Origin: a virus
DNA: 64,000 nt
Virus record (IMG/VR): IMGVR_UViG_3300045581_000900
Span: 47,940 to 111,939 of that record
Reading direction: 5' to 3' (one strand)
In this document: positions 1 to 44,674 of the stretch, one piece after another
Numbering within the stretch: the first letter of the stretch is position 1
Layout: each line of letters opens with the position of its first letter
The notes under the pieces: model-generated
The model's database searches: none
Told to the model about the DNA's origin: nothing
Seen by the model: the letters and a program-made list of their open reading frames with translations, nothing else
Position numbers and translations under genes: made by a program

Positions 1-1715
1 AGAATCTGCTTCACGTCAAAATCAGCCAGACTGCCAGCTTCGAGCCGCTTTCGCAGCACGGACTGAATCATGCCCGGCGAATCGACAAGGTTCGGGGCCA
101 ACTCGGAAATCTCGTTAAACGCCATGGCCACGTCTTGCGGATCATAGCCCGAGATTACAGGGTCATTAAGCACAAGGTCGTGCAGGACGCCCTTGGCCCG
201 AATCGTTTTCAATGCCTGCTCGTGATCGGCATCGGTGAGCGATTGAAAGTGTTCTTTTGTCTTGTCTTTCTTGCCGTCACCATGCAGCATCTTGCCGATC
301 TGCCCAGTCACGCCTTCTTGGCTCGCACCGATTAAACCGCCGACCATTTTCACTGGCGTTGTAATACCAATTTTGTTGTCTTTCAGTATCGAGTTTAATC
401 CGCCAGACGTGTCCTTCGCGACTTGTTTTCCTCCGGCGAGTAACGCGTTGATCGGGTCCTTGGTAGCCTGACTTATCTGTGTAAACGGATTTTTTGGCTC
501 CGGGACGCTATCGCGGGTTGCTCTTCCGTCGGCGACTCTTTTTTCATGCTCCGCAATGCTGTCGTCCCACGGTTTAAAAAGCTCGTCGACATATTCTTCG
601 GTGCTTTGTTCGCCACGAGCCGCTTCTTCGCGGTCCAGTTTTTTGTCGATGGACTTGGTGCTGGTCAGCGGCGGCGAATCCTTTGAGCCAGCGAAATCCC
701 GGGCGGTGAACGACGTGCGACCGGCGAACGGGTCGGTAGGCATTAAGCCGCCTGTTAAGTACGGTTCTTGCAGAGCTTTGCGGGTTTTTGCGGCCTGCAC
801 GCGGGCGTCAAGTCCGCCGGCTTCTTTTAACGTCAGTGGTTCGTCAGCGGGATTGTGCAAGATAGAGCCTGTAATAAACTCTGGTGCTTCTTTCTTACCA
901 AATCCCGCATCAGCTTTTTTTGTGGCTACCCGGCTCTGTGCCTCGTTGTAGTGCTCAACGGTGCCAATCACGTCTTCCACAAGCTTGTACAGCGGGTCAT
1001 GCCCGTAGTGGTTCTTGCCGCTGTCTGCCTGCTTCGTAAAGTGCGGGTACACCGCGGCGATCTTTTGCAGGACGCTCACGCCGCTGGGACCAAGCCGCAA
1101 GCCGACCTCACGCAGGGCGTCTCCAAACGGCATATTGCCGGGCGTGCGGAAATACGTATTTAACTCTTCAAGGCTGTTCGCGGCTTTCTGATATGCCGCG
1201 GCGGCTTGCCGCCGCGTTTCTTCTGCCGCACGCAGTGCGGCATTTTTTTCGCTTTGGGCCCGCATTACAGCCGCGTGCTCGTCACGCGGTGGCGGGGTCC
1301 ATGTCTTCTCGGGCAGAGCCACACCGGCACTCGCGGCCTTCTGCATCGCGTCCCGGCGGCGGTTTAAAAAGCCAGACGGCGGTACTGCATACTCGGTCGA
1401 GACGAGTTCGGACCGTTTCAGTTCCGCAGATGTCTTCACGTTCTCGGGGTACAGGGCTTCAAGAATCACGCGAACGTCAGCCAACGGAAACTCAGCCGCC
1501 TTTTCCAGCGTGTTTTCGCCGCCTTCTCGCTGCTTTGTCGTCCGGCCGGTGTTATAGGCATGCACCATCAGGTTAACGTGCCCGGACGGAATATTGGCGT
1601 CGCTGGCACTCTTGATAATCGCGTCATTGGGGCTCATGCCTTCGTTAACAAGCGAGGCGGCCTTCTCAATGGCGGAGATTAGCTTCCGCTCGGCTTCCTT
1701 GGTGAGTGTACGCAT
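1..1715 (-). CDS. Hypothetical probable virion protein, truncated by the left edge (absent from ORF track)
   Basis: ATG at 1715 just after the upstream stop. Reads MRTLTKEAERKLISAIEKAAS...EKAAEFPLAD, and the same frame reads ...NDPVISGYDPQDVAMAFNEISELAP... near base 1. Middle not checked codon by codon. Confidence 0.8.
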   Translation of the reverse strand, partial: MRTLTKEAERKLISAIEKAASLVNEGMSPNDAIIKSASDANIPSGHVNLMVHAYNTGRTTKQREGGENTLEKAAEFPLADVRVILEALYPENVKTSAELKRSELVSTEYAVPPSGFLNRRRDAMQKAASAGVALPEKTWTPPPRDEHAAVMRAQSEKNAALRAAEETRRQAAAAYQKAANSLEELNTYFRTPGNMPFGDALREVGLRLGPSGVSVLQKIAAVYPHFTKQADSGKNHYGHDPLYKLVEDVIGTVEHYNEAQSRVATKKADAGFGKKEAPEFITGSILHNPADEPLTLKEAGGLDARVQAAKTRKALQEPYLTGGLMPTDPFAGRTSFTARDFAGSKDSPPLTSTKSIDKKLDREEAARGEQSTEEYVDELFKPWDDSIAEHEKRVADGRATRDSVPEPKNPFTQISQATKDPINALLAGGKQVAKDTSGGLNSILKDNKIGITTPVKMVGGLIGASQEGVTGQIGKMLHGDGKKDKTKEHFQSLTDADHEQALKTIRAKGVLHDLVLNDPVISGYDPQDVAMAFNEISELAPNLVDSPGMIQSVLRKRLEAGSLADFDVKQI

Positions 1716-1716
1716 T

Positions 1717-2649: not shown

Positions 2650-2652
2650 GCG

Positions 2653-3042: not shown

Positions 3043-3051
3043 AATTCACCT

Positions 3052-5478: not shown

Positions 5479-5490
5479 TCCCTTATCAAT

Positions 5491-7473: not shown

Positions 7474-7698
7474 TTAGTTTTTTGGCGGCGGAGGAAGTTC
7501 ATTCACTGTCGGGGCCGGCGTGGTAACGCCGGCCATTTTTAACACCGTAGCAAAGTCATTGTCGCCGACAGCGGAATACACAATCCCCTCTGCCACGTGA
7601 GTTGCGACAAAGATCGGGTTCTTTAGGTCGTCTTCAATGACAACCGTATGAGCCTTCGTCTCTGCCGGAATTAAATTATGCTGCGTTTTAACCAGCAT
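7474..7698 (-). CDS. Hypothetical protein (74 aa) between the RNAP genes
   Basis: Overlaps upstream stop; operon packing. Confidence 0.7.
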   Translation of the reverse strand: MLVKTQHNLIPAETKAHTVVIEDDLKNPIFVATHVAEGIVYSAVGDNDFATVLKMAGVTTPAPTVNELPPPPKN

Positions 7699-8404
7699 GA
7701 TTCGTCAAACTCCGGCACAGGGCGGCGACGGCACTTGCTTTCGTTTGAAGATCGAACGTTTCTGGCGTCGACGGGGTTGAAGACACACTGGGATCAATCG
7801 GCCGCCCGATAGAGCGGGCAGCGTGCGTATCTACCGCGTCCCACCAGTTGGCCATCTTCGGGGCACCGGCGTCGGGCGGCATAGGAGCACCGCCAGCCGC
7901 GGCCGGATCACCGCCCGGCGGAGCCGCAGGCGGAGGAGCCATTGGACCGCCGGGAAGGGCGGTTTCCGCCGGCGGAGCACCGGTTGTGCCGGGCGGCAGC
8001 ACCAGCGATTCAGGAGCAACCTGCACGCCCATCGCGTTCATGATCGCCGTAAGTTGCTGCTGCATGTTGTAAAGCCGGTAATCGAGCATTTGCATCATCT
8101 GCTCAGGCTTAAGTTTCTGACCGCCTGCGGCACCACCAGCGGGAGCCGGGGCTGGCTGTGCGGGCGGCAGAGCACCCAGCATCGACGGGTCCATCATTCC
8201 CGGCGGAACAGCACCGCCAGCCGCCGCAGGGTCGCCAGCCGGAGGAGCCGCACCCATCGCTGCCTGCATCGGGTCAGCGGGCGGAACAGCACCTTGAGCC
8301 GCGGCAGCCGGGTCCATACCGCCACCGGGAGGCACCACAGCCGACTTTTCAAACAGAGCCCGCTTGGCGAGCGATAACAATTCGGGATTTACCGTATAGG
8401 ACAT
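7688..8404 (-). CDS. Pro/Gly/Ala-rich low-complexity protein with a central helical segment
   Basis: GGAGG SD; EKSA and PKMA motifs; central KLKPEQMMQMLDYRLYNMQQQL. Confidence 0.8.
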   Translation of the reverse strand: MSYTVNPELLSLAKRALFEKSAVVPPGGGMDPAAAAQGAVPPADPMQAAMGAAPPAGDPAAAGGAVPPGMMDPSMLGALPPAQPAPAPAGGAAGGQKLKPEQMMQMLDYRLYNMQQQLTAIMNAMGVQVAPESLVLPPGTTGAPPAETALPGGPMAPPPAAPPGGDPAAAGGAPMPPDAGAPKMANWWDAVDTHAARSIGRPIDPSVSSTPSTPETFDLQTKASAVAALCRSLTNHAG

Positions 8405-14345: not shown

Positions 14346-14744
14346 TTAAAGGCCCTGAGCTTTCCGATACTTCAGATATGCCTGCCGAGCTTTTAAACGA
14401 TCGGTGTACGCCTTGTAGGTGTTCGCGAGTTCTTGAGCCTTGATATCGTCTTCCGTGACATCCGGCTCGTTGAGTTTTGCCAGCCCGTAGCCACCTGCGG
14501 CACCAGCGGCCAAACCGAGCCCGACCGGCACTCCGACGGCTAATGTGGCGACCGGCTTGGCCGCCTCCACAAGGGCTTTTGCCCCGCCACTAATAGCAGA
14601 CCCTACGCCCAGTAAGTCAAGAGATGCTTTTTCAAGCCAGACGGCTCGCTCGCAGGCCGCCTTTTGCGATAATTTTTCTTCACGGCAGCGGGCGGCGAAC
14701 CCAAGCTGAAAAGCTGTCTTGGCGTCAATATTGGCAAAATCCAT
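14346..14744 (-). CDS. Glycine-zipper membrane protein
   Basis: KTAFQLGFAA N-terminal motif; GLGLAAGAAGGYG. Confidence 0.75.
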   Translation of the reverse strand: MDFANIDAKTAFQLGFAARCREEKLSQKAACERAVWLEKASLDLLGVGSAISGGAKALVEAAKPVATLAVGVPVGLGLAAGAAGGYGLAKLNEPDVTEDDIKAQELANTYKAYTDRLKARQAYLKYRKAQGL

Positions 14745-19179: not shown

Positions 19180-20154
19180 TTAATTTCTATTAAACATTGC
19201 CGGCACGATTGCGTGCATCATACCACCCCAAAGTCCCATGTCTTGTAACTTTTGTTGGCCCAGCGGTGTTAAACCGGCCATTGCCGACAACGCTCGGCCC
19301 GCGATGTTTGCCGTCGCCAATCCGACGCCCGCAGACGCAATACCGCGAATCACGTCGACAGGCCGAATAATCGGAGAACGTTGGGCCGTGCTGATGCCTG
19401 TCATTAAGCCAGTTGTCGCTGCGGCGTAAGCCGGGGGCGTAAACTGGCTCCCACCAGTATACATTCCGCGTTGTACATCTTGCCATGCCGCCTGATTAAA
19501 TTGCGGCACGGACACCGTCGGAGCAAACAGACTCGCGTTATTAAATTGTGCGAAGCCGACTTTTTCGTCAGGGGCGGTCGTGGGCGTCGTGTTCGGCGTC
19601 ACCCATGATTTCCAGAAGCCGATGTCTGGTCGCGTGCGGTAGGTGGCATAGGCGTTGTTTAAACCAATTAACCCGCCGCCAGCGAGGCCCATCAGGCCGA
19701 GATTCTTCCGCAGCCGACCACGCTCCAGATAGCGTTCTGGAAACAGGTTCTCTGCCAGTGCTCCCGCCCCGTAACCGACACCGCCAAGCATCAGCCCAGA
19801 GACGATCGCGTTGGATAACGGCGTCGGGCCGCCCAGCATTTTGTGGCCAAAATCGAACGCGTGACTGATGCCGGGAATCGCCGCAGATTTAATCAAAATT
19901 TCGCGGTCCCAGTCCGGCAGGGTTTCTCGGCTTCTGAGCACGACACAGCGACCATTATCGACGGCCAGCTTGGAGAGCGGCTTCGGTCGGTAGAGCACGA
20001 GCACGTCGTCGACCGTGTCCCATGTGGCTGTGGTGCCGGCTAAGTCACCGGTCTGGGCAGCGATCTTGAAATACAGATGCTGCAGGTGCATGGCCTGCGG
20101 CAGCAATTCAGCGACGCGGTTTGGCACCTGCTGCCAGTCTTGAAGCGTGGTCAT
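19180..20154 (-). CDS. Glycine-zipper probable virion protein
   Basis: GxxxG helices; FKIAA, SKLA, IKSAA motifs; HAFDFG. Confidence 0.75.
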   Translation of the reverse strand: MTTLQDWQQVPNRVAELLPQAMHLQHLYFKIAAQTGDLAGTTATWDTVDDVLVLYRPKPLSKLAVDNGRCVVLRSRETLPDWDREILIKSAAIPGISHAFDFGHKMLGGPTPLSNAIVSGLMLGGVGYGAGALAENLFPERYLERGRLRKNLGLMGLAGGGLIGLNNAYATYRTRPDIGFWKSWVTPNTTPTTAPDEKVGFAQFNNASLFAPTVSVPQFNQAAWQDVQRGMYTGGSQFTPPAYAAATTGLMTGISTAQRSPIIRPVDVIRGIASAGVGLATANIAGRALSAMAGLTPLGQQKLQDMGLWGGMMHAIVPAMFNRN

Positions 20155-24367: not shown

Positions 24368-24730
24368 TTACTTTCCTTTCAGTTGTGCTAGTTTCGACAC
24401 CGACGCGTTGATCGTGTCTTCCTGAGCCGTGGTCCGGCCCAGTTCAACGTCCGAGCCCTTCTGGATCGTGTCGGTGTCGATTTTAGTTACGACTGTACGC
24501 GTATCAATATCAATTTTGCCGAGTTTTTCCTTTGTGGCGGAAACTTTTGCGGCTTTCTTTTCCTGTTCAAAGAAGCTGGTCGGCGATTGGACGCGGCTCT
24601 CCATGATTAAACTTGGGCCGCCGTCGATGCCGTGGATTTTGCGGAGCACGGTATAGAGAAAGTCCATGCGGGCAAAGAAATAGCCCAGCAGGAAACCGCC
24701 CAGAAAGCCGAGTGTTACATACGCTGCCAT
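24368..24730 (-). CDS. Membrane-anchored protein directly upstream of the actin gene
   Basis: N-terminal TM; C-terminal helix SVSKLAQLKGK; 2-nt gap to the actin ATG. Confidence 0.75.
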   Translation of the reverse strand: MAAYVTLGFLGGFLLGYFFARMDFLYTVLRKIHGIDGGPSLIMESRVQSPTSFFEQEKKAAKVSATKEKLGKIDIDTRTVVTKIDTDTIQKGSDVELGRTTAQEDTINASVSKLAQLKGK

Positions 24731-28082: not shown

Positions 28083-28739
28083 TTAAAACGGATAAACCCC
28101 GTAGGCGTTGGTGAGCATGCTGGCGGCGAACTCCTCGTACGACTTGCCGAGCGGGAGATGCAGCGAACCGTCGTCATCCACCGTCAGAAACTTCACATAT
28201 TCCGGCCTTTGCTTAAACGCCGTGAGTACCGCCAACTCCCGAGCCCGCCAGCCGAGCGACGGGTCGTGCCGGGCCTCGAACATCTTCTGGAGAATTCCGG
28301 CGAACCATGCGTCGCCCGTGTCGATCTCGCGTAACTGCCGGGTCGCCTCGGCCACGGCTTGGTTGAACAAGTAGTCGGGCTTGCCGGTCTCCAAATACTG
28401 CTGCTTTAATCGGTTGAGCAGAGCATGCACCTCGCTGGCCGTGGCCGGTGCTCCGGGCAGGCCCATGACCAGCGTGACCAAGAGCCAATTGGGCGTCGTG
28501 AAGAGTATCTCGCCGGGTTTGCGGGCGGCGTCGAGGGCTTTCTTGCCAGCACGCCAGCCGGAGCGATTCCCCTCCGCATCAAGGGTGTCCATGTACGCCT
28601 GAATCGTCTTGGCCACCTCGGCGGTCGTGTCGGTGGTCAACTCGGTGATCGTCGGAAGCTCGGCCAGTTTAAACAGCTTGACAACCCGCACGAACAGGCG
28701 GCCAAGCAGGGCACGCATCCCGTCGGGCAGCTTGTTCAC
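28083..28739 (-). CDS. Hypothetical protein
   Basis: GTGA overlap start. Confidence 0.65.
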   Translation of the reverse strand: MNKLPDGMRALLGRLFVRVVKLFKLAELPTITELTTDTTAEVAKTIQAYMDTLDAEGNRSGWRAGKKALDAARKPGEILFTTPNWLLVTLVMGLPGAPATASEVHALLNRLKQQYLETGKPDYLFNQAVAEATRQLREIDTGDAWFAGILQKMFEARHDPSLGWRARELAVLTAFKQRPEYVKFLTVDDDGSLHLPLGKSYEEFAASMLTNAYGVYPF

Positions 28740-30595
28740 TTGTCTGACTTCTTCTTCTTGTCTGTCTTCTTCTTGCCACTGCCCACAGGCCGGCACGAGT
28801 CGTTGCTGTACGGCTTCTTACCCGGGACTGGTTCATACCCGGCCCAGCAGCGGGCACTCTTCATGCACATGACGACGATGGTCTTCTTCGCCGCGGGCTT
28901 GGCTTGATTCCGTAGATTCAGTTCGTGCTCCCGGCGGGCTGAGTCCACGCGGTACGGTGCCCCCTTGGCTTTTTCAGCTTTCAGGTCGCTAAGTTCCTTG
29001 GCGTCCATGTCGTTGAACGCCCACTTCTCAACGAGTTTATTGATGTTCATGTCTGAGCTACCTTTTACTGTGCCCGGCTGGGCTTGTGCGATCTGCTGCT
29101 GCTGGTTATTACCCCAATTCCACGGCATTCTTGAGTTGCCGATTGTGTAGTCATATGCTCCCTGAGCCGCGGACTGAGCCGCGTTGTACGCTTTTTGCGG
29201 AAGGATTTCAGTGGCGAACGTGGAAACCGGGTCGTCTACATACCGTTGCCCCTGCTGCTGCATCTGAGAAAGTTCGCTCTTCGGGTCGTTCAAGTGCCCG
29301 TGCAGCATGGCGGCGTTTTGAGCGGCACGAACCGCCTGCTCGTCCGTCATGTTGGTGTCTGAAAGATTTTGCAGCATTCGCGGCCGCATGCCCTCGGGCA
29401 AACGCATCAGCGTGGCCAGTTGCTGCTTCTGCTGCTCGGCTTTGGCCAATTGCTCTTTTATTGCCGCGGGCGAAAAACCGCCGCTACCTTTGGCTTTAAT
29501 CGCAGCAATCGGGTCGTCGGCGGTGAGCATTGAGAGGTCTTGCTTGCCCTCAGGAATCATGCCCAGAAACGAGCCCATGTTGTACGCGGCATCCGCGGTC
29601 ATGTTCTGAGCCCCTTGGCCGAACATGCCGCCCGCGGCTCCGCCCAACACACCGGCACCCAAGCCCAGAGCCCCCATAATGCCCATGCCCATGCCGCCGC
29701 CGCCGAACAATGACGACATAATGCCGATTAAGCCCATTGGCAGACCGATGCCGACCATCGCCTGCAGCGGGAGCGGCATGTTTTGAAACGTGCTCATCGC
29801 GTTGTTCACCATCTCGCCGTAGCCCTGTGGCGTCGAGGCTTTCTCGGGATCAGCCTGCACCTGCTGCTGGATGTGGGCGTCTATGGCTGCTTTAAACTTG
29901 GCCTGATATGCCTGTGCCTGCGGCGTGTTCTTGCCCGCTTGGGCGTCTCGGAATCCCTGCACTAACTCGGGGTTCTGCTGCAGATGGTCGGTGACGAACT
30001 TCTCGGCGAACTGTTTCCGTTCCGCCTCCGGGATATTACTGTCATTCAGCTTGCTTTCGATCTCTGAAAACGCGACAGGCGTCACTTCAGGAGCCGGGCC
30101 TGATGTCTCCACCGGCTTGCCCTGTGTATCCGTCATCGTGCCCTGCATGTTCGACACGATCGGCTGCGGCTGGGTGTTGCCGGCCATCTGCGGTTCAGTC
30201 GGAGCAGGAGGGGCCACCGGCTGTGCTGGCTGGGCTAACGATGCTGGGCCCGGCGTCGACACCATAGGCGTCGTGGGGTTTATCGGAGCTTGCGGGGGAG
30301 CAGGAGCAGGCGGTGGCGGGGCGACGGGTGGCGTTGCTCCCATCAGGCTGTCCATGCCCGCCCGGCCGAAGTCTTTCCGCTGTTGAAACGTCGCCGGGAA
30401 CAGCGGCTTCGCGAGTGGTGCCGGCGGCTTCGCCAGTGATGGCGACGGACCAGCCCCGAGCGACTGTGTCGGTGACGCCGTGGTAGTGGACGCACTGATA
30501 CCGCCCGACGCGTTCGACGTCGTTAAACTAGGCTGGGACGCACCGATTGCGGCGTACTTGTGCATCACGCCGCGAATAAGCTGGGCCGTCGTCAT
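28736..30595 (-). CDS. Modular probable virion protein (Pro-rich region, Gly zipper, C-terminal RCWAGYEP micro-domain)
   Basis: HKYAA, EKWAF, MKSAR motifs; GxxxG helices. Confidence 0.8.
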   Translation of the reverse strand: MTTAQLIRGVMHKYAAIGASQPSLTTSNASGGISASTTTASPTQSLGAGPSPSLAKPPAPLAKPLFPATFQQRKDFGRAGMDSLMGATPPVAPPPPAPAPPQAPINPTTPMVSTPGPASLAQPAQPVAPPAPTEPQMAGNTQPQPIVSNMQGTMTDTQGKPVETSGPAPEVTPVAFSEIESKLNDSNIPEAERKQFAEKFVTDHLQQNPELVQGFRDAQAGKNTPQAQAYQAKFKAAIDAHIQQQVQADPEKASTPQGYGEMVNNAMSTFQNMPLPLQAMVGIGLPMGLIGIMSSLFGGGGMGMGIMGALGLGAGVLGGAAGGMFGQGAQNMTADAAYNMGSFLGMIPEGKQDLSMLTADDPIAAIKAKGSGGFSPAAIKEQLAKAEQQKQQLATLMRLPEGMRPRMLQNLSDTNMTDEQAVRAAQNAAMLHGHLNDPKSELSQMQQQGQRYVDDPVSTFATEILPQKAYNAAQSAAQGAYDYTIGNSRMPWNWGNNQQQQIAQAQPGTVKGSSDMNINKLVEKWAFNDMDAKELSDLKAEKAKGAPYRVDSARREHELNLRNQAKPAAKKTIVVMCMKSARCWAGYEPVPGKKPYSNDSCRPVGSGKKKTDKKKKSDK

Positions 30596-32149: not shown

Positions 32150-34030
32150 TCAGGCGGGTTGTTCCCGGTTTTCCGAGCCGATGTCGCGGAGCAGATTGCG
32201 AAAGGATTCGTTCAACTGTTCTTTCTCGGCCGTGAGGCGTTCGAGCACCTCATCAGCCGTGCGGTGCCGCTGTTTGCCGAAGAGTTTCCGGCCGAGCACG
32301 CCCGGCTCTTCAGAAGCGTTTAAATATCTTTGCACGGCGACGTTCTTGAGTTCCTCGGGCAGGCCGGCATGACTGTCGAACCGCAGGCCACGACCGCGGG
32401 CCTGCTGGAGCCGAGCCTCGTTCCAGTGGGGGTCCAGAAGCTGGATCAAACTCGTGCCCTTGGTCGAGATGCCCTCCGCGGCGGCCGGGCCTAAGAGCAA
32501 CGCCCGGAGCTTGCCCTCGTTATAGTCTTTCAGGGCCTGCTGGCGTTGCTTTGTGGGAATGCTGCCGTGAAAAATCCCATAAGGAATCTGGTTCTTCTCC
32601 AGTGCCGCAGCATACGGGTTGATGCCGGAGTCGACGAAGTTGGAATAGATAATCGCCTTCTTGCGAGGGTCTTCGTCGAGCACTTTCTTGAGGTTGGTGT
32701 ACGCCGTCTGCAGCTTGCCCGACTGCTCGAAGGCCTTGAGCGGGTTCTTGTCGGCCCGGAACGTCTGCGTCGACAGCCCAGCCTGCCGCATGCCGTTCAA
32801 AAAGCTGTTTAAACGACTAAGCTCGTCCTTCGAGAGCGGGAACTCGCGGTCCAGTTTCCAGAGAAAGCCCGGCGGAATCTTCGTGCGGATCGCCTTGTGA
32901 ATCTTCTCTTGTTCGGGCGTGAGCGGCGTACGGATGATCTCTTCGTTGACGTTCACGCCCTCGGGAGTCTTGCTGGGCTGATAATCGACTTTGCCCTTGA
33001 GCAGTTCCCGCAGTTCTGCCTCGTTCTTAATAAACGGCCGCACGCCGGGCTTCACGCCTCGCAGCCAGCCCATCCAGCCGGGCTTCACCTTCTTGTAGCC
33101 CACATAGCGTTCGGCAAAGCTCTCGGGGTCGATGCTCTTGCCCTGCAGCATCGAGACCAACGGGGCCAAGTCTGTGGGCGAATTCGTGATCGGCGTGCCG
33201 GTTAAGAGCATTACGCGTTTGGCATTGCGGGCCGCCTGCATGGCCGCTTGGGTCATCGCCGAGTTGGGATTTCTAAGCCTCGCCGCCTCGTCCATGATCA
33301 GCGTGTCGGGCTGGGACTTGAACGGCTTGCCCATGCCGAGTCCTGTGTAGCTCATGACCTCGGGATTGGAGTTGCGGGTGAACTTCTTGATCTCTTTCTC
33401 GAAGTTCCCCCGCAGACTCGCCGGCACCACGGCCGCATAGCTCCCGCCATGGAGTTTCCGGGCCGCTTCCGCCGCGGCTATAGACGACAGAGATTTCCCC
33501 GAGCCCAAGCCGTGATAGACGAGTAATCGGGGATTCTCGCCCGTGATTTTGTCGGCAATACGCTGCTGGTGGTCTTGTAGCTGGACGTCAGGGCTTAATT
33601 CCGCCTGTTTCTGCCGGTCGGCCAGATGCTGCTGAATCGCCTTGTTTTTATAGGCTTCCAGCATGTCTACGACACCATTTCGCGACTCGCTAGGGACCAA
33701 ATTCGCAGGGTCGATGCCCCAGTTGCGTAACGCCCAGCCGCGTCTGGCTGTGGGGTTTTTCACAAACGGGCCGCCATGGCGAGCCTTGAAGCTCAGCCAG
33801 CGTTTCATCTGCCGCTCGTCCTCGTCGGGAATCCTGCGGCCCGATGCGTAACGTTTGTACCACTGGGCCCAGCCCTTCGGGTCATGCTGGCTGATCCATT
33901 CGGGCTTCCACTCCCCCAGACTGGCTAAACGCGGACCTTGGCCGCGGTACAACGAGTCGTACACGCCCAGACTTTCCATCTGTTCGGGCGTGTAGTCCGG
34001 CGTGAATTTCGCAGCAAGGTCGTCGGGCAT
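32150..34030 (-). CDS. SNF2/SF2 helicase (poxvirus D6/D11-like) with a separate N-terminal domain
   Basis: YHGLGSGKS, MDEAARLRN, LLTGTPITN, AEGISTK, DPHWNEARLQQARGRGLRFDSH. Confidence 0.88.
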   Translation of the reverse strand: MPDDLAAKFTPDYTPEQMESLGVYDSLYRGQGPRLASLGEWKPEWISQHDPKGWAQWYKRYASGRRIPDEDERQMKRWLSFKARHGGPFVKNPTARRGWALRNWGIDPANLVPSESRNGVVDMLEAYKNKAIQQHLADRQKQAELSPDVQLQDHQQRIADKITGENPRLLVYHGLGSGKSLSSIAAAEAARKLHGGSYAAVVPASLRGNFEKEIKKFTRNSNPEVMSYTGLGMGKPFKSQPDTLIMDEAARLRNPNSAMTQAAMQAARNAKRVMLLTGTPITNSPTDLAPLVSMLQGKSIDPESFAERYVGYKKVKPGWMGWLRGVKPGVRPFIKNEAELRELLKGKVDYQPSKTPEGVNVNEEIIRTPLTPEQEKIHKAIRTKIPPGFLWKLDREFPLSKDELSRLNSFLNGMRQAGLSTQTFRADKNPLKAFEQSGKLQTAYTNLKKVLDEDPRKKAIIYSNFVDSGINPYAAALEKNQIPYGIFHGSIPTKQRQQALKDYNEGKLRALLLGPAAAEGISTKGTSLIQLLDPHWNEARLQQARGRGLRFDSHAGLPEELKNVAVQRYLNASEEPGVLGRKLFGKQRHRTADEVLERLTAEKEQLNESFRNLLRDIGSENREQPA

Positions 34031-37450: not shown

Positions 37451-37488
37451 CTCTAATGGTCCTGCGGTAGCGGGAAAGACGCAGTGTT

Positions 37489-38007
37489 TTATTTTCGTCG
37501 CAGGCTGTGGGCTAACGTCGTACCGAACGCGAACGCACTGGCGATCTTGGGTTCTTCGGAGCCGTACGTGTGGTCGCCGTAGGCTTTGCCGGCCATGCCG
37601 CCGAGCACCGTGCCTGCCGCGAGGCCGCCGGCACCGCCAGCCGCTGCACCACGCAGAGCCCCCATCAGTCGGCTGCGACGCCTGAGCCGCACGCCGCCCT
37701 CCTCGTCGATTTCACCCACGGCACCCGGATCATACGCCCCGTGCAAACCGCCGCCGATCACGCCGGCGAGGCCACCGCCCATGCCGCCTAAACTCGCTCC
37801 CGCCAGCGGAGCGACCGCCTGCGAAATGGCTTGGCTTAAACTTTGCTCGGCGGCCTTCGTTTCACCGCTCGTGTGCTCGCGGCTGAACTCGTCGGGGGTC
37901 ATCTTCTTGTGCTCTTCATACTGCATCTTAGGCTTCATGCCCTCGACCGGCTCGCTGCAGTCGTATACTTTCGCGGCCTTGGTCAGCAGTTCAATGTTTA
38001 CGCTCAT
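37489..38007 (-). CDS. Glycine-zipper hairpin protein
   Basis: TKAA x2, PKIASAFAFG; PG...DEEG...RRRSRLMGALRG loop. Confidence 0.8.
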   Translation of the reverse strand: MSVNIELLTKAAKVYDCSEPVEGMKPKMQYEEHKKMTPDEFSREHTSGETKAAEQSLSQAISQAVAPLAGASLGGMGGGLAGVIGGGLHGAYDPGAVGEIDEEGGVRLRRRSRLMGALRGAAAGGAGGLAAGTVLGGMAGKAYGDHTYGSEEPKIASAFAFGTTLAHSLRRK

Positions 38008-38034
38008 GTCGGGGTTCCTGTTTTAAAAGTAGTA

Positions 38035-39927
38035 TTAGCGGCCCAGCGTCGGTGAGCCGGGCAGTTGCATGTTGCTCATGTCAATGCCGGAGGCGTCAAA
38101 GCCACGACTCGGTGCTGTTCTGATATTCTCTTCGACCTGCTTGTCTCGAACCTGTTGCAGCATGCGGGCGAACTCGGCGGGATTCTTCTGCTTCATCGCC
38201 AAGACTTCGGGCGAGACGTTTTCAATTCCAGCCTGCTGGTCCATGCTGGCCTGCTGGGCCTTGGCCGCGGCCTGAGCCTTCGACTTGGCATACGCCGACG
38301 GGCCCATCAGCGACTCGTTCTGGCGGTCAAACTTGGCCTGCTCGTTGGCAGCAGCACGGGCTCTTAACGCGGCTACGCCAGCGGTATCCGTCGGCGTATA
38401 CGTCGGCGATTTAGGAGCCTGCATGTTCGCCATGTTCGGGCCCTTGTAGAGCGGATTCGAGACCTGCCCGCCGGTGTTCCCGCTGGCAATACTTGCTCCC
38501 ATCGTGCCCGGAGCACTCGCAGTCTGGGCGTCACGGAACCGCTTGGCCTCGCCCTTCTGCAGGCTCGGGCTGAAATAATCTTTGTCAGAACCGCGGTACG
38601 ACTTGGCATAGTTTCCGCCGCGGCCCTGTTCTGTGGCCAGAGCGACTTCCTGCGGCGACTTCGGGTTGGCGGTGCTCGTCGGTGCCTTGGGTCCGAAGCC
38701 CAGTCGCTTCGCCAGATCGCTGCCAAAGCCCGTCGCCGCACCGTAGGCACTGTTCACGGCATCAGGGGCAAAGTGGCCAGCCAGTCCGCCAGCACCAGCA
38801 CCCATCACGCCGCCGCCGATCAGGCCACGCAGAGCCGCACCAAATCGGCTGCGTTGCTTGCGGCCCACGAGATTGCCCTCGTCGTCATAGACGTCTTCTT
38901 CGCCCGGAGCGACAAGGCCGGCTAAGCCGCCGGCCAAGCCACCGCCCAAGCCACCCATGCCAGCACCCTGCAGGACGCCGGCCGGAATATTGCTGGTTAA
39001 ATTCTTGGCGTAGCTGCCGAGGTCCTGCAGCGACGGCATAGCCTGCTTTTCACTCGCCGTCTTGCCGCCCATGAGCCCGCCCAGACCGATCCCGGCCAGC
39101 ATCGAATTTAAATTGCCGCCGTTGGCCAGATGCGAGCCGATGTACGTGCCCGCACCACCTGCCGCCGCACCGAGCAACGCATTGCGAAATCGGTTCTTGC
39201 GACTGAGCAAGGCACCGGCTGCACCGCCGGCCAGAGCACCACCGGCCGCGTTTGTCAGATTGCCCGAGATACCCAGTCGGCCGGCAAGCGTCGTGTCTTT
39301 CTCACGCTGCTGTAATTCAGGAGCCACCGGATTCCCCGAGGGACGAGCCTCACGCACATGCATCGGCCGACCGTCGAACACAGGCTCAGGCTGACCAGAC
39401 GAAAACGGCCAGATGGCCTCTTTGCTCAGGGCCTGAATCCGCTCTGCCTTCTCGTTCAGCGACAGCGACGTGTTGTTCACAATCGCGGCGAGCTTTTCAT
39501 GAGCCGCCTTGGACGACTCGCCTTCGCTGTCGTCTTCTCTCTTCGGAGCTTTTTTCTTCTGCGGAGCCGGAGCTTTCTGCTGCCACGGAGCTTTCTTGCC
39601 CGTGATGCCCTTGGCGATGCCGGCACCAGCGTGATAGCCGCCGTAGCCGCCAAAGCCCGCACCGCCCACCAGCCCAGCCAGTGTCGGAAGACCCATCGCC
39701 ACGCCGCGGTACTCGTCGGGCACAAGCTGAGAAATGCCGGCTCCGATGCCACCACCGGCCAGAGCACCGGCCAGTCCGCCGGCACCAGCACCAACGCCGA
39801 GCCCGATCCCACGGCCGGCACCGTGCACGGCACCCTCACCACGGCTGCCTGCGGGCGACGACATCGCACCAATACCGGCACCGATTAATCCGGGCAGAAC
39901 AATCTCAGCTTTTTTTTCGTTGGGCAT
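38035..39927 (-). CDS. Glycine-zipper polyprotein (three hairpins)
   Basis: EKKA, SKAA, EKLA, SKEA, GKTASEKQA motifs separating Gly-zipper units. Confidence 0.82.
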   Translation of the reverse strand: MPNEKKAEIVLPGLIGAGIGAMSSPAGSRGEGAVHGAGRGIGLGVGAGAGGLAGALAGGGIGAGISQLVPDEYRGVAMGLPTLAGLVGGAGFGGYGGYHAGAGIAKGITGKKAPWQQKAPAPQKKKAPKREDDSEGESSKAAHEKLAAIVNNTSLSLNEKAERIQALSKEAIWPFSSGQPEPVFDGRPMHVREARPSGNPVAPELQQREKDTTLAGRLGISGNLTNAAGGALAGGAAGALLSRKNRFRNALLGAAAGGAGTYIGSHLANGGNLNSMLAGIGLGGLMGGKTASEKQAMPSLQDLGSYAKNLTSNIPAGVLQGAGMGGLGGGLAGGLAGLVAPGEEDVYDDEGNLVGRKQRSRFGAALRGLIGGGVMGAGAGGLAGHFAPDAVNSAYGAATGFGSDLAKRLGFGPKAPTSTANPKSPQEVALATEQGRGGNYAKSYRGSDKDYFSPSLQKGEAKRFRDAQTASAPGTMGASIASGNTGGQVSNPLYKGPNMANMQAPKSPTYTPTDTAGVAALRARAAANEQAKFDRQNESLMGPSAYAKSKAQAAAKAQQASMDQQAGIENVSPEVLAMKQKNPAEFARMLQQVRDKQVEENIRTAPSRGFDASGIDMSNMQLPGSPTLGR

Positions 39928-39934
39928 AGTTAAC

Positions 39935-40399
39935 TCACGCGGTTGTGGTGATCTGGTCTAAAAGAGGTTTGTTGACGTCAACAGCGTCATACTTCTTGGT
40001 GACGGACAGCGGCAGAAACCCCAGAGCAGTCTGTTTCACGCCGGATAAAATTTTGTCGATTTCAGGATTATACTGCGAAAGCGTTTGGCTTGCATAGTTG
40101 GATAACGCACTCGTGCCGGCCCCGATGGCCGCTCCTTGTAACGCCCCCATCCACGGATTTCGCTTCTTTTTCGCGATCACATTGCCGTGGGCGTCGAGCT
40201 TTTCATGATAGCCCGGCCAGAGTAATCCCCGGCCGAAACCCAAGCCGCCGCCGACCGTGGCCGCGATTAACAACTGCCGCAGAGCCTTGTAGTCATGGGG
40301 CAGCCGCGGATCGACGCCATACATGTGCTCAAACTGGGTTTTATATCCGTCCCAGAAGGACTCGGCGATCTTTTCACCGAACTCGCGTGGCGTACTCAT
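39935..40399 (-). CDS. Glycine-zipper hairpin protein
   Basis: TPREFGEKIA; PG...DAHG...KKKRNPWMGALQG. Confidence 0.78.
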   Translation of the reverse strand: MSTPREFGEKIAESFWDGYKTQFEHMYGVDPRLPHDYKALRQLLIAATVGGGLGFGRGLLWPGYHEKLDAHGNVIAKKKRNPWMGALQGAAIGAGTSALSNYASQTLSQYNPEIDKILSGVKQTALGFLPLSVTKKYDAVDVNKPLLDQITTTA

Positions 40400-41802
40400 T
40401 TGTTTTTATCCCATGCATCAAGAGCGGCGTAGCCCATGGCGGGTGTGGCGGGCGAGTTGTCTGCCTTTAAAAACTGCAGGGCGAATGGAGCCCGATTGCC
40501 CCCCATGTTTTCCTTCCATGTGTAGTTGTCCTGCCGCGGAGCCACCTCGAACTTTTGCCCCACCCACGGAAGCTCGTCCGACAGGATATTATCCCACACC
40601 CACCGGCCGCCAATCGTCTTCATCGTGCTGGAGTTCGTGTGGCCTGTGTCCTTCGTGGTGTACCAGCCCAGACTCTCGCTCAAGGGAGCTTCACGCCACT
40701 TGGAGTCGGTCAGGAACTTGCCCAGATTCTTCTTGAAGTACTCGCTCTCCAGCTTGCTCGGCGTCACGTCCCAGCGGTCGAGCACCATGCCCTGATACTT
40801 CCCGTCGGGCGTCTTCACGTACGGCACCTGCATGCCGCCCATCAACTGGTTGACGCCGAAGAAGTCGTACACGTTGGGCTGGTAGCTGGGATATTTGTTA
40901 AACGTCCTGAGAGCCGTCTCGGGGTCCTTGAGCAGTTGCTCCGGCCCTGACGAGGAAAGACTATCGCGTTTCAGCCCGACGTGCGTCTTGCTGCTAAACA
41001 GCGTCTTGAGCCGGTCGGCGTACTCGGGGCTTTTCTCGTTGAGCGAGTAGTAGCCTTCGGGGTTCTTCTGCCACCACGGATTCGCCTTGTCGACCGGCAG
41101 GCCAAACTGCCGCCGCACGAGTTCCATGCGGGCCGGAAGCTGCTTGAGCGGGTCGGTCTCGCCCGTGGCTTTGTTCGTGCCCCAGTACTTCATCGCGTCT
41201 TCGTCAAAGTCCTGCTTGTCAAGAATAGCCGCGTTCCAGATACGCTTGAGCGACGGCGTGATCTCCTTCGTGGCCGTGGGGCGATAGCCCATCGGTATCT
41301 TCGTGTTGGCAATGTACCGGCGGAACCGGTCGCCCACGATGTTGCTCAAGCCCGCCCCGGTCAACGCACCTGTTAACACACGCTTGAGCGTCTGGCGTTT
41401 GCCCTTCTTGTCCTTGCCGCGGATGAGGTCGTACAGGCCGCCGACACCAGCCCCGGCCAAACCGCCGGCCACGGTATCGGGCACACGGAGCTTGGGCAGA
41501 TGCCAGCGGATGTTCTCCAGCACCTCTTTCAGGTCGGCGGTCTTCTCGGCCGGGACAGGAGCCAGTCGCTTTTTCTTAGCTATCGCCTTGGCTTTCACAC
41601 TGGGCCGCTGCTGGTTTAAATACCATAACGCGGCCCCCAAGCCGCCCACCGTCGCGAGCGGGGCGTAGTTCCAGAGCTTTTCTTTCACCGCGTTGTAGTC
41701 GTACGTGGCGGCGAAGCCCGGCTCATTGATGTCGGGCAGGTCGGGGTACTGCTGGCGAAGCGTGTCCCGGAAGTCAGTCGGTGAAGGGAAGGGAGCGGGC
41801 AT
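40396..41802 (-). CDS. Glycine-zipper protein with a C-terminal globular domain
   Basis: EKTA; GGLAGAGVGG...GALTGAG. Confidence 0.78.
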   Translation of the reverse strand: MPAPFPSPTDFRDTLRQQYPDLPDINEPGFAATYDYNAVKEKLWNYAPLATVGGLGAALWYLNQQRPSVKAKAIAKKKRLAPVPAEKTADLKEVLENIRWHLPKLRVPDTVAGGLAGAGVGGLYDLIRGKDKKGKRQTLKRVLTGALTGAGLSNIVGDRFRRYIANTKIPMGYRPTATKEITPSLKRIWNAAILDKQDFDEDAMKYWGTNKATGETDPLKQLPARMELVRRQFGLPVDKANPWWQKNPEGYYSLNEKSPEYADRLKTLFSSKTHVGLKRDSLSSSGPEQLLKDPETALRTFNKYPSYQPNVYDFFGVNQLMGGMQVPYVKTPDGKYQGMVLDRWDVTPSKLESEYFKKNLGKFLTDSKWREAPLSESLGWYTTKDTGHTNSSTMKTIGGRWVWDNILSDELPWVGQKFEVAPRQDNYTWKENMGGNRAPFALQFLKADNSPATPAMGYAALDAWDKNK

Positions 41803-41810
41803 TGGCGACG

Positions 41811-42785
41811 TTACTCCTCTGCTGTAGCCGTGCGGGCCGGAGCCTTCTCGTCGTCTTTTTCAGCAGACTCGTCGTCGTCCTGCCGGGCCTTGGCCGCGGG
41901 CTTCTTTTTCTTCTTGGGGGCTCGCTCGGAGACGTACTTGCCACCAGCCCCGGCGGATTCAGCAAGGCCATATAGCTTGCCAGCAGCCAGACCAGCCAGC
42001 GGACCCATGGGCCCAGCGAGACTGCCCAGATAACTGCCCATGCCCGCCGGAAGTACCCGCTGCCGTTCATCGAGAATCTGATTGAGCTTCTTGGGGTCAT
42101 TGCGATAGGCCTTTCGCAGAGAATCCTCGCTGTTAAAGTTCGCGGCGGCTTCTTGATACAGCATGATCGGCGTCAGGGCCCGCGAGAGCATGTACGCGTC
42201 CCGGGTCAGGCCGCCACCCTGCCGCTTGAGCCAGCCGGTCACGCCCTTGCCCTTGGGCACCGGGCGGGAATTAAAGTCGATGGCGTGGCCGAGTTCGTGC
42301 GTGAGCGTGGCGGGCGAATTGCCATATAAATGCGTCGTGTCGCTGAACGGATTGTAGTGCGAGCCCCGCATGGAATTCATCGTCAACGCCGTGAGCGGAT
42401 ACGACGCCAAGCCTAAGCCTTTGCCCAGAATGCTCGTTCTGGGGTTGCTCATGATCCGGGGAATATCCCGGGTGAGTCGCGTGCCGCCCAAGACCACGGT
42501 ATGGTTCTTCAGTTCCTGCGGATTGGCCCGCTCCATGTCTTGGGCAAGCTGCTGGAGAGCCATCGCCCGGCGGTCCTTCTTGCTGATCTCCGCCTCGTTC
42601 CAGCCGCCCGTGGCACCCTCCCAGTCCGTCGGGTTCACGTGGCTCTTGAGTGTTAAGAGCGGCAGGCCCGAGAGCACGCCGCCCGCTTGGCCGACCGTCG
42701 AGGCCAACGCCCGGCTGGGCAGCCCCGCTCGTTCAACGTTGATAGCCTGCTTGACCAGCTTTCCAAACGCGACAGCGTGCGACAT
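41811..42785 (-). CDS. HExxH zinc-metallopeptidase-like domain plus Gly zipper
   Basis: HAVAFGKLVKQA; TLTHELGHA...YQEAAA. Confidence 0.75.
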   Translation of the reverse strand: MSHAVAFGKLVKQAINVERAGLPSRALASTVGQAGGVLSGLPLLTLKSHVNPTDWEGATGGWNEAEISKKDRRAMALQQLAQDMERANPQELKNHTVVLGGTRLTRDIPRIMSNPRTSILGKGLGLASYPLTALTMNSMRGSHYNPFSDTTHLYGNSPATLTHELGHAIDFNSRPVPKGKGVTGWLKRQGGGLTRDAYMLSRALTPIMLYQEAAANFNSEDSLRKAYRNDPKKLNQILDERQRVLPAGMGSYLGSLAGPMGPLAGLAAGKLYGLAESAGAGGKYVSERAPKKKKKPAAKARQDDDESAEKDDEKAPARTATAEE

Positions 42786-42823
42786 GACAATGATCCTTGC
42801 TGGAGAAAAAGACAGTTATTTAT

Positions 42824-44674
42824 TTATTCAGTGGGCAGCCGCAGCGGGCCCATCTTGTGCATCCGTTCGGCGAGCCGTTTGAGTTCCTTGGAGCTATAGC
42901 CGACGCCCGAGCTTCGCATGGCGGCCTCGTAGTCGTCCGCGGTGCCCTCTTCGGGCACGCTGGCCAACGCGTGAGCCGCCGCCGTGGGCCGGTCCTTGAA
43001 CCCGTCGCCGATCCACTTGTACAGGCTGCGGGTCTCTTTATTCGCTTGGCGGCCACTGGGCCGGCCCCAGTCAGTCTCGATGTACGGGAACGGGGCCAGA
43101 CCAATAGCCGTGCCACCGATCGGGCCGCCGAGGCGTAACGCGATATCAGGCGTCGGAACCACGCCGCCTAAATATCTGTATCCCACTTGGGGATTGAGGC
43201 CCCATTCGCCGAGTTGCCACTTCTGGCCGCCCCAGCTTGGCGAGAGATTTAACACCCGCTTGGCAGCTTCTTTGCCGAAGCTTTCCGCGGCACTGCACTT
43301 GCAGTTCCACTTGCGTAACGCCTTGTTAATCCGGGAGTCGGGGTCCTTCTTGGTCTTGCTGCCCGTGTTCACCCGCTTCATGCCGCACATCCGTGAGCAG
43401 AACGAATTCTGGCGTTTATCGCGTTCGCCCGTGGGGTTCTTTTCGGTCACCGGAGCCTTGAGATTGCCGCCGGTTTCGCGGTTGTAGCTCGCCCGGCCTT
43501 TGGCGTTTAAGCCGCCCTCGTCGTTCTTGCCGGCAGCCCGTTGCCATGCTGGCGTGCTGGCCCATTTCACCACGGCACTTTTCACGCGTTCTTCGGCCAG
43601 AATATCGAGCATAGTATCGGGCTCAACGTGGTCCATGCCCATGAGCCAACCCTGAATGGGATCACCGCTGCTGCTGGACTTGAAATGCGTATTTAAACGG
43701 TCATAATCCGGCTGAAAATCCTGCACGGGATACTCGCTGTCGTCGTAGTCGCCCTGTGTATAGTTGCGGTAGCCCGCCCGCAGAGCTTTCGACAAGAGCG
43801 AGCCGGCCAACATACCGCCAGCCAGCGGACCAAACGGCAAATGCACAGTATTCGCCGGCGGCTTTTTCTTCTTGGCCGTGGTTTTCGCCGCCGAAATCTT
43901 GGTGTTCACGGTATTGGGTGCCGACAGGCTGGCATTGCCGTTGATAATTCCGCTCATAGATAACCCCGAATGAAATTTAATTGGGTCCGTGGTCGCCGAG
44001 GACTGGCCGGCACCTACGGGTGTCGGATTCGCTGGCTGGGATTGTTGTTTTTGCTGCGATTGTGCTGGCTGGGCAGGGGCTTGAGCCTGCTGCATCCCCA
44101 TTGGGAGTGGTATCTGCGGCGTGGCGACGGGGTACTGTTTTAAACCTTGGTTTTTTCCCACGCGGACGGGAACGCGGCCCTCCCGTTCAGCATTCATGTT
44201 CTCCATGGTCTGTTCAATCGCTGGAGATAACACCACGGAAAGCTTCTGTAGCAGCGTGTTTATGGCATTTTCGCCCTGACCTTCGTCGATATTCTTGCCC
44301 GTATCTATGCTGCTGGAAATCAGCCCCTTTTCTCGCTCTTCTCCGGCATACACTGGCTTTTCACTCTGCGGCATGTCGACTTTTTCCTGTTTGGAGTCGG
44401 CTGTTTTCGCGTTTTGGGCCGGATCGGGGTCTAAAATAGAAGGCACGGTAAAGTTAACACTGTCCGTAAATCGACGAATTAAACCCGAAATGTTAATTTG
44501 GGCTGTTTTCTCCGCGGGCTGGGTTGTATCGTTTTTATCACTGGCGTACATGGGCAAATCCTTATTGGACTTGGGATATTTATGGGCCCAGCGTTTGGCG
44601 ATATCAGGGTGTTCGGCCCAGAGAAAGCGGCGTTGTTTCTCAGATTTAAACGGCATAGCGGATTTGGTTCCCAA
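42824..44674 (-). CDS. Modular probable virion polyprotein (MPFKSEKQRR micro-domain, DUF6321-like domain)
   Basis: TKSA, EKTA, AKTA, VKSA, VKWA, GKEA motifs; AWQRAAGKNDEGGLNAKGRASYN...SFCSRMCGMK...RINKALRKWNC. Confidence 0.8.
   Translation of the reverse strand: MGTKSAMPFKSEKQRRFLWAEHPDIAKRWAHKYPKSNKDLPMYASDKNDTTQPAEKTAQINISGLIRRFTDSVNFTVPSILDPDPAQNAKTADSKQEKVDMPQSEKPVYAGEEREKGLISSSIDTGKNIDEGQGENAINTLLQKLSVVLSPAIEQTMENMNAEREGRVPVRVGKNQGLKQYPVATPQIPLPMGMQQAQAPAQPAQSQQKQQSQPANPTPVGAGQSSATTDPIKFHSGLSMSGIINGNASLSAPNTVNTKISAAKTTAKKKKPPANTVHLPFGPLAGGMLAGSLLSKALRAGYRNYTQGDYDDSEYPVQDFQPDYDRLNTHFKSSSSGDPIQGWLMGMDHVEPDTMLDILAEERVKSAVVKWASTPAWQRAAGKNDEGGLNAKGRASYNRETGGNLKAPVTEKNPTGERDKRQNSFCSRMCGMKRVNTGSKTKKDPDSRINKALRKWNCKCSAAESFGKEAAKRVLNLSPSWGGQKWQLGEWGLNPQVGYRYLGGVVPTPDIALRLGGPIGGTAIGLAPFPYIETDWGRPSGRQANKETRSLYKWIGDGFKDRPTAAAHALASVPEEGTADDYEAAMRSSGVGYSSKELKRLAERMHKMGPLRLPTE

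Follow-up and report, generated by a model that had tools for sequence, protein, structure and literature searches.

Lys-x-Ala as the very likely recognition code of a jumbo-phage head protease, recurring at the module joints of polyvalent proteins

The core system of phage T4 comprises the prohead protease gp21 (MEROPS S77, structure 5jbl) together with gp22, gp67, gp68, gp23, IPI-III and Alt, and the established cleavage code of gp21 is I/L-x-E. Herpesvirus assemblins (MEROPS S21; varicella-zoster virus, VZV; human cytomegalovirus, HCMV; herpes simplex virus, HSV) cut their release and maturation sites at (V/L/I)-x-Ala↓Ser. In phage SPN3US the sites are A-x-E; long propeptides are cut at several places, the portal is processed, and the protease cleaves itself C-terminally (PMC10052503). 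Polyvalent proteins are multi-domain chains of conflict-type enzymes whose architecture varies; they are predicted to enter the virion and to be delivered along with the DNA, and processing by embedded metallopeptidase domains has been proposed for them (Iyer et al. 2017; PMC5512222). Here we analyze a 64-kb window (bases 47940-111939 of the 111,939-nt virus contig IMGVR_UViG_3300045581_000900, nearly all genes on the minus strand), where the tripeptide Lys-x-Ala (K-x-A) marks both head-module proteins and the joints of polyvalent proteins. Judging from the protein sequences, these K-x-A sites are most likely the cutting sites of the phage's own capsid protease of the T4/herpesvirus type, and Lys(P3)-x-Ala(P1) is very likely the code used by the head protease of this lineage.

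All 106 contig proteins of at least 100 amino acids (aa) were scored for K-x-A against expectations from within-protein shuffles. The five most enriched are neighbouring head genes just downstream of the capsid gene (window positions; negative numbers lie upstream of the window start):

-3408..-2977, 143-aa head-module protein, K-x-A-enriched
-2958..-1591, 455-aa acidic, scaffold-like protein, K-x-A-enriched
-1544..-87 (L003:12396-13853), minus strand, 485-aa predicted prohead protease with a gp21-like fold, K-x-A-enriched
-78..1715, minus strand, 597-aa head-module protein (C-terminal 571 aa in the window), K-x-A-enriched, N-terminal part homologous to gp220 of Salmonella phage Arash
3052..5478, minus strand, 808-aa protein, K-x-A-enriched, homologue of the abundant Arash virion protein gp218

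A sixth gene (129 aa), just upstream of the capsid gene, joins this set at the family level. The gene order is 808-aa protein, 129, 310, 597, protease, acidic 455-aa protein, 143, 185 and capsid protein. The six genes (window -5383 to 5478) contain 57 K-x-A against 23 expected (z 7.5), and the extended form K-x-A-[AS] is found 26 times against 4.8 (z 9.4). Only two of them were among the 15 open reading frames (ORFs) that an earlier note on this DNA had named as carriers of K-x-[A/S/G] motifs; most lie just upstream of the window. The 597-aa protein has 12 K-x-A in its first 300 residues and none after (12 versus 5.6, p 0.009), the motif K being conserved at 0.74 compared with 0.26 for other K in 41 orthologues, with a family ratio of 2.46 (29 orthologues). 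The 808-aa protein has 11 versus 4.4 (p 0.001) and a family ratio of 2.21 (56 orthologues).

The enrichment was specific for the spacing and for both residues. Scanning gapped pairs (gaps 0-4) in the five head proteins placed K-x-A at the top of all pairs scored (54 versus 21.5, z 7.3); KA, KxxA, KxxxA and KxxxxA were all at expectation, and neither ExA nor pairs ending in E were enriched. For the head-module genes K-x-A reached z 7.3-7.8, whereas K-x-S gave z 1.6, K-x-G z -0.4 and R-x-A z -0.3. Favoured neighbours are E/T/Q ahead of the Lys, L/F two positions ahead of it and A/S/G after the Ala, the last in about 56% of the head-module sites. Codon use at K-x-A sites equals the background, which rules out a DNA-level motif, and blastp among the six proteins detected one weak 54-aa similarity only (455-aa protein versus protease tail), so that K-x-A is a motif at the protein level.

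For the capsid protein (L003:8975-9916, minus strand), genes of 54-99% identity are present on 65 IMG/VR loci, and the five relatives examined are 98-100% complete with 198-224 kb, three of them with terminal repeats. Orthologues of the head families in 29-59 IMG/VR relatives keep a 1.9-3.3-fold K-x-A excess, including those of less than 60% identity; in the capsid, sheath, decoration-like and several beta-rich head-region families the excess is absent or the motif is depleted. The motif K and A in the head alignments are conserved at 0.71 and 0.72, versus 0.44 and 0.51 for other K and A (p 2e-7 and 6e-7), with x at 0.48, and K-x-A ranks first of 128 residue pairs in relative conservation. The capsid protein itself has a single K-x-A, K29-x-A31, invariant down to 53% identity with a variable x. 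As a positive control, the same pair scan of T4 gp67, gp68, gp21 and gp22 gave IxE first and LxE second; it returns the known gp21 code, and therefore finds real protease motifs.

Summed over orthologues, depletion of K-x-A was observed in the sheath (L002:11829-15365; 15 versus 43 expected), a 134-aa head-region protein (4 versus 25) and the 185-aa protein (14 versus 34), which may reflect selection against protease sites or simply a beta-rich composition.

The prohead protease that the earlier note expected elsewhere in the genome was found in the 485-aa gene, 87 nt outside the window start. The structure model predicts that this protein is a prohead protease of the T4 gp21/herpesvirus-assemblin fold. 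Its N-terminal ~230 residues, modelled alone with a predicted local distance difference test score (pLDDT) of 76, are followed by a ~235-aa helical tail. Comparison of the domain model with 48,161 Protein Data Bank (PDB) chains gave T4 gp21 as the best match (5jbl_A, Z 8.2, root-mean-square deviation 4.0 Å, 146/165 residues). The second-ranked hit had Z 4.0, and the assemblins of VZV and HCMV had Z 3.8 and 2.8. The full-length model matched 5jbl at Z 5.8, and in Foldseek chains of 5jbl took the first three places (prob 0.87-0.91). H62, H103 and S164 are invariant in 22 protease sequences down to 41% identity. The homologue in Gordonia phage Stormageddon is annotated as a capsid maturation protease, and phage G gp19 has been called a head maturation protease (PMC12484599). 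A conserved K39-x-A41 precedes the protease core, a nearly invariant K247-x-A249 stands directly after the fold in a low-pLDDT linker, following the invariant RPADRIAY that closes the fold, and eight further K-x-A sites are located in the helical tail. By analogy with SPN3US (PMC10052503), sites so placed would be what self-processing needs.

A PDB sequence-profile search with the protease family gave no hit, and a 6-residue hhalign match to gp21 (VSSRGI/VSSRGL) was dismissed as chance since it is not at a homologous position. We also rejected, as the K-specific enzyme, the secreted trypsin-like serine protease at 35536-36384 (minus strand), which has a signal peptide and is present in none of the relative loci fetched. 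Two protease orthologues (L047:5874-7379 and L050:5833-7299) have large insertions in the N-terminal part that resemble inteins or homing elements.

Salmonella phage Arash (OQ632216), Vibrio phages D69, D181 and D148, and Bacillus phage G (gp19) encode homologues of proteins of this phage and are likewise enriched in K-x-A. Arash shares the protease (40% identity to gp222), capsid protein, RNA polymerase and helicase, with gp218-gp226 in the same head-gene order, but it is distant, the capsid proteins being 27-29% identical by tblastn. K-x-A is again the top pair in Arash gp218-225 (44 versus 19.6, z 6.3), and of 77 ORFs scanned none scores higher than gp220 (10 versus 3.0), gp223 and gp222. 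The Arash capsid protein has K27-E-A29 at the place matching K29-x-A31, and phage G gp19 and gp21 together have 15 K-x-A versus 5.2. The Arash paper mentions neither protease nor cleavage (PMC10585845).

The second group of sites is found in two proteins encoded far from the capsid gene:

20151..21896, minus strand, 581-aa polyvalent protein with leader, 2H-SAK, NUDIX, DUF5661 and C-terminal domain (Pfam); joints K37-Q-A (21780-21788), K192-A-A (21315-21323), K329-A-A (20904-20912), K402-A-A (20685-20693) and K478-A-A (20457-20465)
32150..34030, minus strand, 626-aa SNF2 helicase with a conserved 140-aa N-domain, K141-Q-A143 (33602-33610) and the helicase core (Pfam)

Both belong with the polyvalent proteins, having several unrelated domains, and modules are gained, lost and reordered among their homologues, as seen in 120 database homologues surveyed for each. 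The 2H-SAK homologues have the architectures 2H-DUF5661, 2H-NUDIX-DUF5661, or these with one or two P-loop kinases, and they differ in module order (2H-kinase-NUDIX versus 2H-NUDIX-kinase), each module retaining its K-x-A-A leader. K-x-A follows the 2H domain in 111/111 homologues, precedes the NUDIX box by 39-43 residues in 56/57 and a DUF5661 landmark by 31-47 residues in 105/113, and stands exactly 14 residues before the P-loop in 5/5. A thinned subset of these homologues has 47 K-x-A-[AS] versus 12 expected (z 10.8). K192-A-A of the 581-aa protein is invariant, with indels and module swaps directly beside it. We additionally detected a Cys-rich module (TTYDCxCSGxCxCPxTCxCK...) directly after the invariant K-A-A joint in the orthologues on L123, L097, L108 and L107, replacing NUDIX in one of them.

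Among the SNF2 homologues K141 is invariant before the helicase core. Inserted modules (kinase, NUDIX or others) stand right in front of K141 and bring a K-x-A or K-x-S leader of their own. Extensions at the N-terminus are joined via AKMAA, AKLAA or QKQAT, and where a DUF6321 module has been added at the C-terminus, AKLAG or QKEAG stands ahead of it. The alignment to the Arash helicase gp217 begins only at residue 145, right behind K141-Q-A143; unlike the 32150-34030 protein, gp217 has neither the N-terminal domain nor the K-Q-A joint. The gp217 gene is located inside the Arash head gene block, and virion mass spectrometry gave 1148 spectra for gp217 and 1149 for gp218 (PMC10585845). This abundance is, by analogy, indirect support for packaging of the helicase in virions. 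The Arash virion list also contains both RNA polymerase subunits and several small phosphohydrolases (PMC10585845).

The other named ORFs with K-x-A sites, and those of the 37-45 kb region, are as follows:

7688..8404, minus strand, 238-aa Ala/Pro-rich protein between the RNA polymerase genes, K20-S-A22 at 8339-8347
14346..14744, minus strand, 132-aa protein, N-terminal K9-x-A11 at 14712-14720
19180..20154, minus strand, 324-aa protein, K30-x-A32-A at 20059-20067
28736..30595, minus strand, 619-aa protein, K524-W-A (29018-29026) and K579-S-A (28853-28861) before a small C-terminal RCWAGYEP module
42824..44674, minus strand, 616-aa accessory-island protein, K370-W-A-S (43559-43567) 2 residues before DUF6321 (376-450, PAWQR...)
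37489..42785, minus strand, five named ORFs (37489, 38035, 39935, 40396 and 41811), some with Gly-zipper membrane segments

The site of 7688-8404 is kept in 93% of 30 orthologues, versus a local conservation of 0.54 (family ratio 2.11). For 14346-14744, KEA, KTA or KDA is present in 69% of 36 orthologues only 32-48% identical overall, and for 19180-20154, KAA, KVA, KIA or KFA in 63% of 43 orthologues at a local conservation of 0.29 (family ratio 1.85). For 28736-30595 the signal is weak with few orthologues, KWA being found in 4/6 and KSA or KAA in 5/6. In the six families of named ORFs outside the head module (7688, 14346, 19180, 20151, 28736 and 32150; 21 sites) relative conservation is higher for motif K and A than for other K and A (p 0.003 and 0.002), compared with p 0.58 for the K of K-x-A in 34 control families, and K-x-A ranks 2/122 pairs in conservation versus 116/278 in the controls.

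The earlier note had read the K-x-[A/S/G] tripeptides, near N-termini and at domain boundaries of the 15 ORFs, as cleavage sites of mix-and-match capsid cargo polyproteins. All 15 ORFs exist and contain the quoted tripeptides, and the quoted positions are correct (DRQKQA before the SNF2 core, EVRKAA between 2H-SAK and NUDIX, VKWAS before DUF6321 (TPAWQR...) and MKSA before RCWAGYEP). The presence of a tripeptide says little, because chance alone gives ~124 K-x-[ASG] in the 15 ORFs, and the proposed enrichment was not found: 107 were seen versus these 124 expected (z -1.9, within-protein shuffles), with z -1.6 for seven ORFs at 7.7-34 kb and z -3.8 for six ORFs at 37-45 kb. K-x-A alone occurs 68 times versus 53 expected (z 2.4), and the whole excess comes from two head-proximal ORFs, 1-1715 and 3052-5478. 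The motif survives as a very likely code with Lys at P3 and Ala at P1, unlike the Glu-ending T4 and phiKZ codes, but P1 is not A/S/G, as K-x-S and K-x-G are not enriched. Placement near the N-terminus proved marginal, with K-x-A in the first 45 residues of 14/38 genes at 5.5-44.7 kb versus 9.0 expected (p 0.05); for head genes it was 7/12 versus 3.1 (p 0.018). Conserved sites close to the N-terminus are present in 7688, 14346, 19180 and 20151.

The core of the proposal holds for the head proteins and for the two polyprotein families of 20151-21896 and 32150-34030, with K-x-A-[A/S/G] at each module joint, ahead of the swappable modules NUDIX, P-loop kinase, DUF5661 and DUF6321. The definition, statistics and gene list of the earlier note were mostly wide of the mark; enrichment is absent in 13/15 ORFs. 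Conservation in homologues was confirmed as selective in the six families outside the head module, but not for 12861-13976, which has no conserved K-x-A site. The membrane modules at 37-45 kb did not bear out the proposal, having no relatives in IMG/VR or the five complete relatives and no enrichment; comparative support extends only to the DUF6321 joint of 42824-44674, this module also following AKLAG or QKEAG in SNF2-family proteins. The six island ORFs contain 21 K-x-A versus 19.9 expected and 6 K-x-A-[AS] versus 3.7. The five in 37489-42785 have no homologues in IMG/VR or the five complete relatives, and nothing ties them to the system. A search of the same sets for relatives of 38035-39927, 12861-13976, 40396-41802 and 42824-44656 detected none except isolated DUF6321 domains in unrelated phages, and no orthologues of the whole 42824-44674 protein were found there either. 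The N-terminal 'KSA' of the latter ORF is upstream of the likely ATG start (MPFKSEKQRRF).

We suggest, with a probability of roughly 0.72, that a head protease with the K-x-A code processes both prohead-interior proteins and the module joints of polyvalent proteins, and that the freed modules leave with the DNA. The protease would recognize Lys at P3 and Ala at P1 and most likely cut after the Ala, before a small residue (A/S/G); this bond is suggested because of the P3-x-P1 geometry of the fold family and the small residue that follows. The first substrate class would be the prohead-interior proteins encoded around the capsid gene (129, 143, 455, 485, 597 and 808 aa, including the protease itself). 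With a site every 30-40 residues, these would be chopped up or trimmed as long propeptides, like T4 gp22, gp67 and gp68 and the SPN3US propeptides, and the capsid protein would offer its single invariant site. The second class would be polyvalent proteins encoded elsewhere, namely the 2H-SAK/NUDIX/DUF5661 protein, the SNF2 helicase and probably the small proteins 7688, 14346 and 19180, with one K-x-A-[A/S/G] per linker between modules. The conserved N-terminal part would carry the chain into the prohead, where the protease would then free the modules, and these would exit with the DNA. The occurrence of one motif both at the joints and throughout the presumed head-protease substrates points to processing in trans by the prohead protease.

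More tentatively, K-x-A-[A/S/G] could act as a plug-and-play grammar, any module placed behind such a leader on a capsid-targeted carrier being loaded, freed in trans by the head protease and injected. The 39-aa leader with the 2H-SAK domain, or the 140-aa SNF2 N-domain, may be such carriers. We consider this extension possible, at clearly less than even odds; if it is true, the clade including Arash and phage G evolves an injected counter-defence arsenal by cassette exchange at protease sites.

Several observations weigh against the proposed role of the head protease. Raw K-x-A counts are at expectation in the other 13/15 named ORFs (45 versus ~44), and we infer cleavage at K-x-A, the bond cut, packaging and ejection for every member. 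The orthologue sets are phylogenetically related, so the conservation p-values overstate independence. The assignment of H62, H103 and S164 as catalytic residues is a candidate one; Pfam (including Peptidase_S77) gives no family above threshold for the protease, and hhalign of its alignment to T4 gp21 gives a probability of 0.5%. Many protease-tail sites are in predicted helices, and three conserved sites (53, 95 and 137) fall within the catalytic fold and may be conserved for structural reasons. With 116/272 proteins listed, the mass spectrometry of Arash may include contaminants (PMC10585845), and the 2H-SAK protein has no homologue in the 86 kb of Arash examined.

Some of these points would suit a motif that is a protease site in head proteins only, the K-x-A-A of the polyvalent proteins being a linker element with another role and not a mark of capsid cargo. 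Its role could be that of a helix cap, of a rigid Ala-rich linker or of a site for another protease, for instance the phage matrixin at 17569-18384 or a host enzyme. K-x-A counts at expectation outside the head module are consistent with it, as are the position of the polyvalent genes, 20-34 kb from the head module among non-structural genes (volactin, glycosyltransferase), and the fact that nothing puts the 2H-SAK protein in virions. However, both sets of proteins use the same tripeptide with the same small P1' residue, the motif precedes four unrelated modules at fixed distances, and the Arash SNF2 homologue is in the head block and abundant in virions (PMC10585845). If the linkers were just rich in Ala and Lys, an excess of KA, KxxA and KxxxA would be expected too, and the head proteins show none. 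We regard this explanation as unlikely, though it is the strongest competitor of the in-trans processing proposed here.

Less probable still, and in our view improbable, is a recognition or modification signal, for example a scaffold-capsid contact, a lysine modification or a cross-link. It would account for the several conserved sites in predicted helices and within the protease fold, and K-x-A cleavage is itself an indirect deduction. Yet the P3-x-P1 geometry and the substrate set (scaffold-like proteins, protease flanks and capsid N-terminus) resemble those of T4, phiKZ and SPN3US, the pair scan recovers the true cleavage code of T4, and a contact motif would not be expected at each joint of shuffled enzyme modules. 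The least probable explanation is chance or composition, K-x-A being common in Ala/Lys-rich helical proteins and picked out by eye. This is true of the observation as first stated, with K-x-[ASG] not enriched and the 37-45 kb ORFs null, but it is highly improbable as a general account in view of z 7.5 to 9.4 against within-protein shuffles, the specific one-residue gap, the replication in orthologues of less than 60% identity, in Arash and in phage G, and the selective conservation of K and A but not x. Chance explains neither the head-module genes nor the two polyvalent families; it stands only for the island ORFs.

The contig is about half of the ~200-kb genome of an uncultured, myovirus-like jumbo phage; it is a partial genome, since the related contigs are larger, many of 190-235 kb and five 98-100% complete. 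It breaks within a collagen-like G-x-y repeat (window 63690-64000), probably an assembly break. The tail module (sheath, baseplate wedge) is upstream of the window, whose start falls within the head module. No cultured phage matched a 20-kb stretch in megablast, most head and tail genes had no hit in PHROGs or Pfam, and ESM Atlas returned nothing usable for the 808-aa protein. Nothing on the contig or in the relative loci fetched matches the Arash portal gp204, and therefore the portal is probably encoded on the missing half of the genome. The 808-aa protein was considered as the portal and dropped, its Arash homologue gp218 being distinct from the annotated portal gp204.

Other window genes encode a matrixin with a peptidoglycan-binding domain, the 2H-SAK/NUDIX/DUF5661 protein, a volactin-type actin, a glycosyltransferase, the SNF2 helicase, the trypsin-like protease and the DUF6321 protein. 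Given this content (RNA polymerase, enzymes, actin), the 1-44.7 kb region is not a structural block. The multisubunit RNA polymerase is split over 8428-12864 and 5491-7464 (minus strand), with beta fused to the N-terminal part of beta' and the remainder of beta' in a separate gene; the abundance of the Arash homologues gp206 and gp216 in virion mass spectrometry suggests, by analogy, that it is packaged in the virion (PMC10585845). The volactin-type actin (23331-24365, minus strand; Pfam PF25216, E 8.5e-62), with a partner at 24368-24730, is kept at 70-98% identity in at least 99 IMG/VR stretches and recalls the PhuZ tubulin of phiKZ-like phages. The matrixin (M10; 17569-18384, minus strand) is conserved in 43 loci. 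The ~7-kb block at 37489-44674 (60% GC), with Gly-zipper/membrane proteins and the DUF6321 protein, is absent from the five complete relatives and looks like a strain-specific accessory island.

Experimentally defined prohead-protease codes are few, and the T4, phiKZ and SPN3US codes compared here all end in Glu. Among the papers searched, none describes a Lys-x-Ala prohead code, and a recent jumbo-phage review makes no mention of it. If true, the Lys-x-Ala code, nearer to the herpesvirus Ala↓Ser rule, widens the range of prohead-protease codes and makes mature protein ends predictable across a mostly uncultured jumbo-phage clade of 65 or more IMG/VR contigs, many of ~200 kb. It would also bear on how polyvalent chains are processed, a question left open by Iyer et al. 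(2017), for which we propose cutting in trans by the head protease at linker sites.

Taken together, the locus resembles the T4 core system in the protease fold and in the order of protease, scaffold-like genes and capsid gene. As in T4, phiKZ (gp175) and SPN3US (gp245; PMC10052503), core or scaffold proteins are saturated with a P3-x-P1 motif, which also stands on both sides of the protease domain and at the capsid N-terminus; long propeptides with several sites, and packaged enzymes as likely substrates, are further likenesses to the T4 and giant-phage systems. The motif here is Lys-x-Ala, whereas theirs is (I/L)-x-Glu or (S/A/G)-x-Glu. Unlike T4 gp21, the protease has a Cys-rich insertion and the ~235-aa helical C-terminal tail, with no detectable sequence similarity, and unlike T4-type systems the sites are also at internal module joints, not only after N-terminal propeptides. 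Assemblin shares the P1 Ala, the small P1' residue, the P3-x-P1 pattern and a weak fold match, and its Ser-His-His triad may have a counterpart in the invariant H62, H103 and S164, but P3 is Lys and not hydrophobic, and dozens of sites in many proteins stand against two in one precursor. The 2H phosphoesterase, NUDIX, kinase and SNF2 chains, with highly variable architecture, are like polyvalent proteins; in contrast to the scheme of Iyer et al., no peptidase domain is embedded here and every joint carries the motif of the presumed head-protease substrates. The locus is accordingly not the undescribed system that the earlier note had put forward: the prohead-protease and packaged-protein scheme and the class of polyvalent proteins are both known, and what is new is the recognition motif and its link to polyvalent-protein joints.

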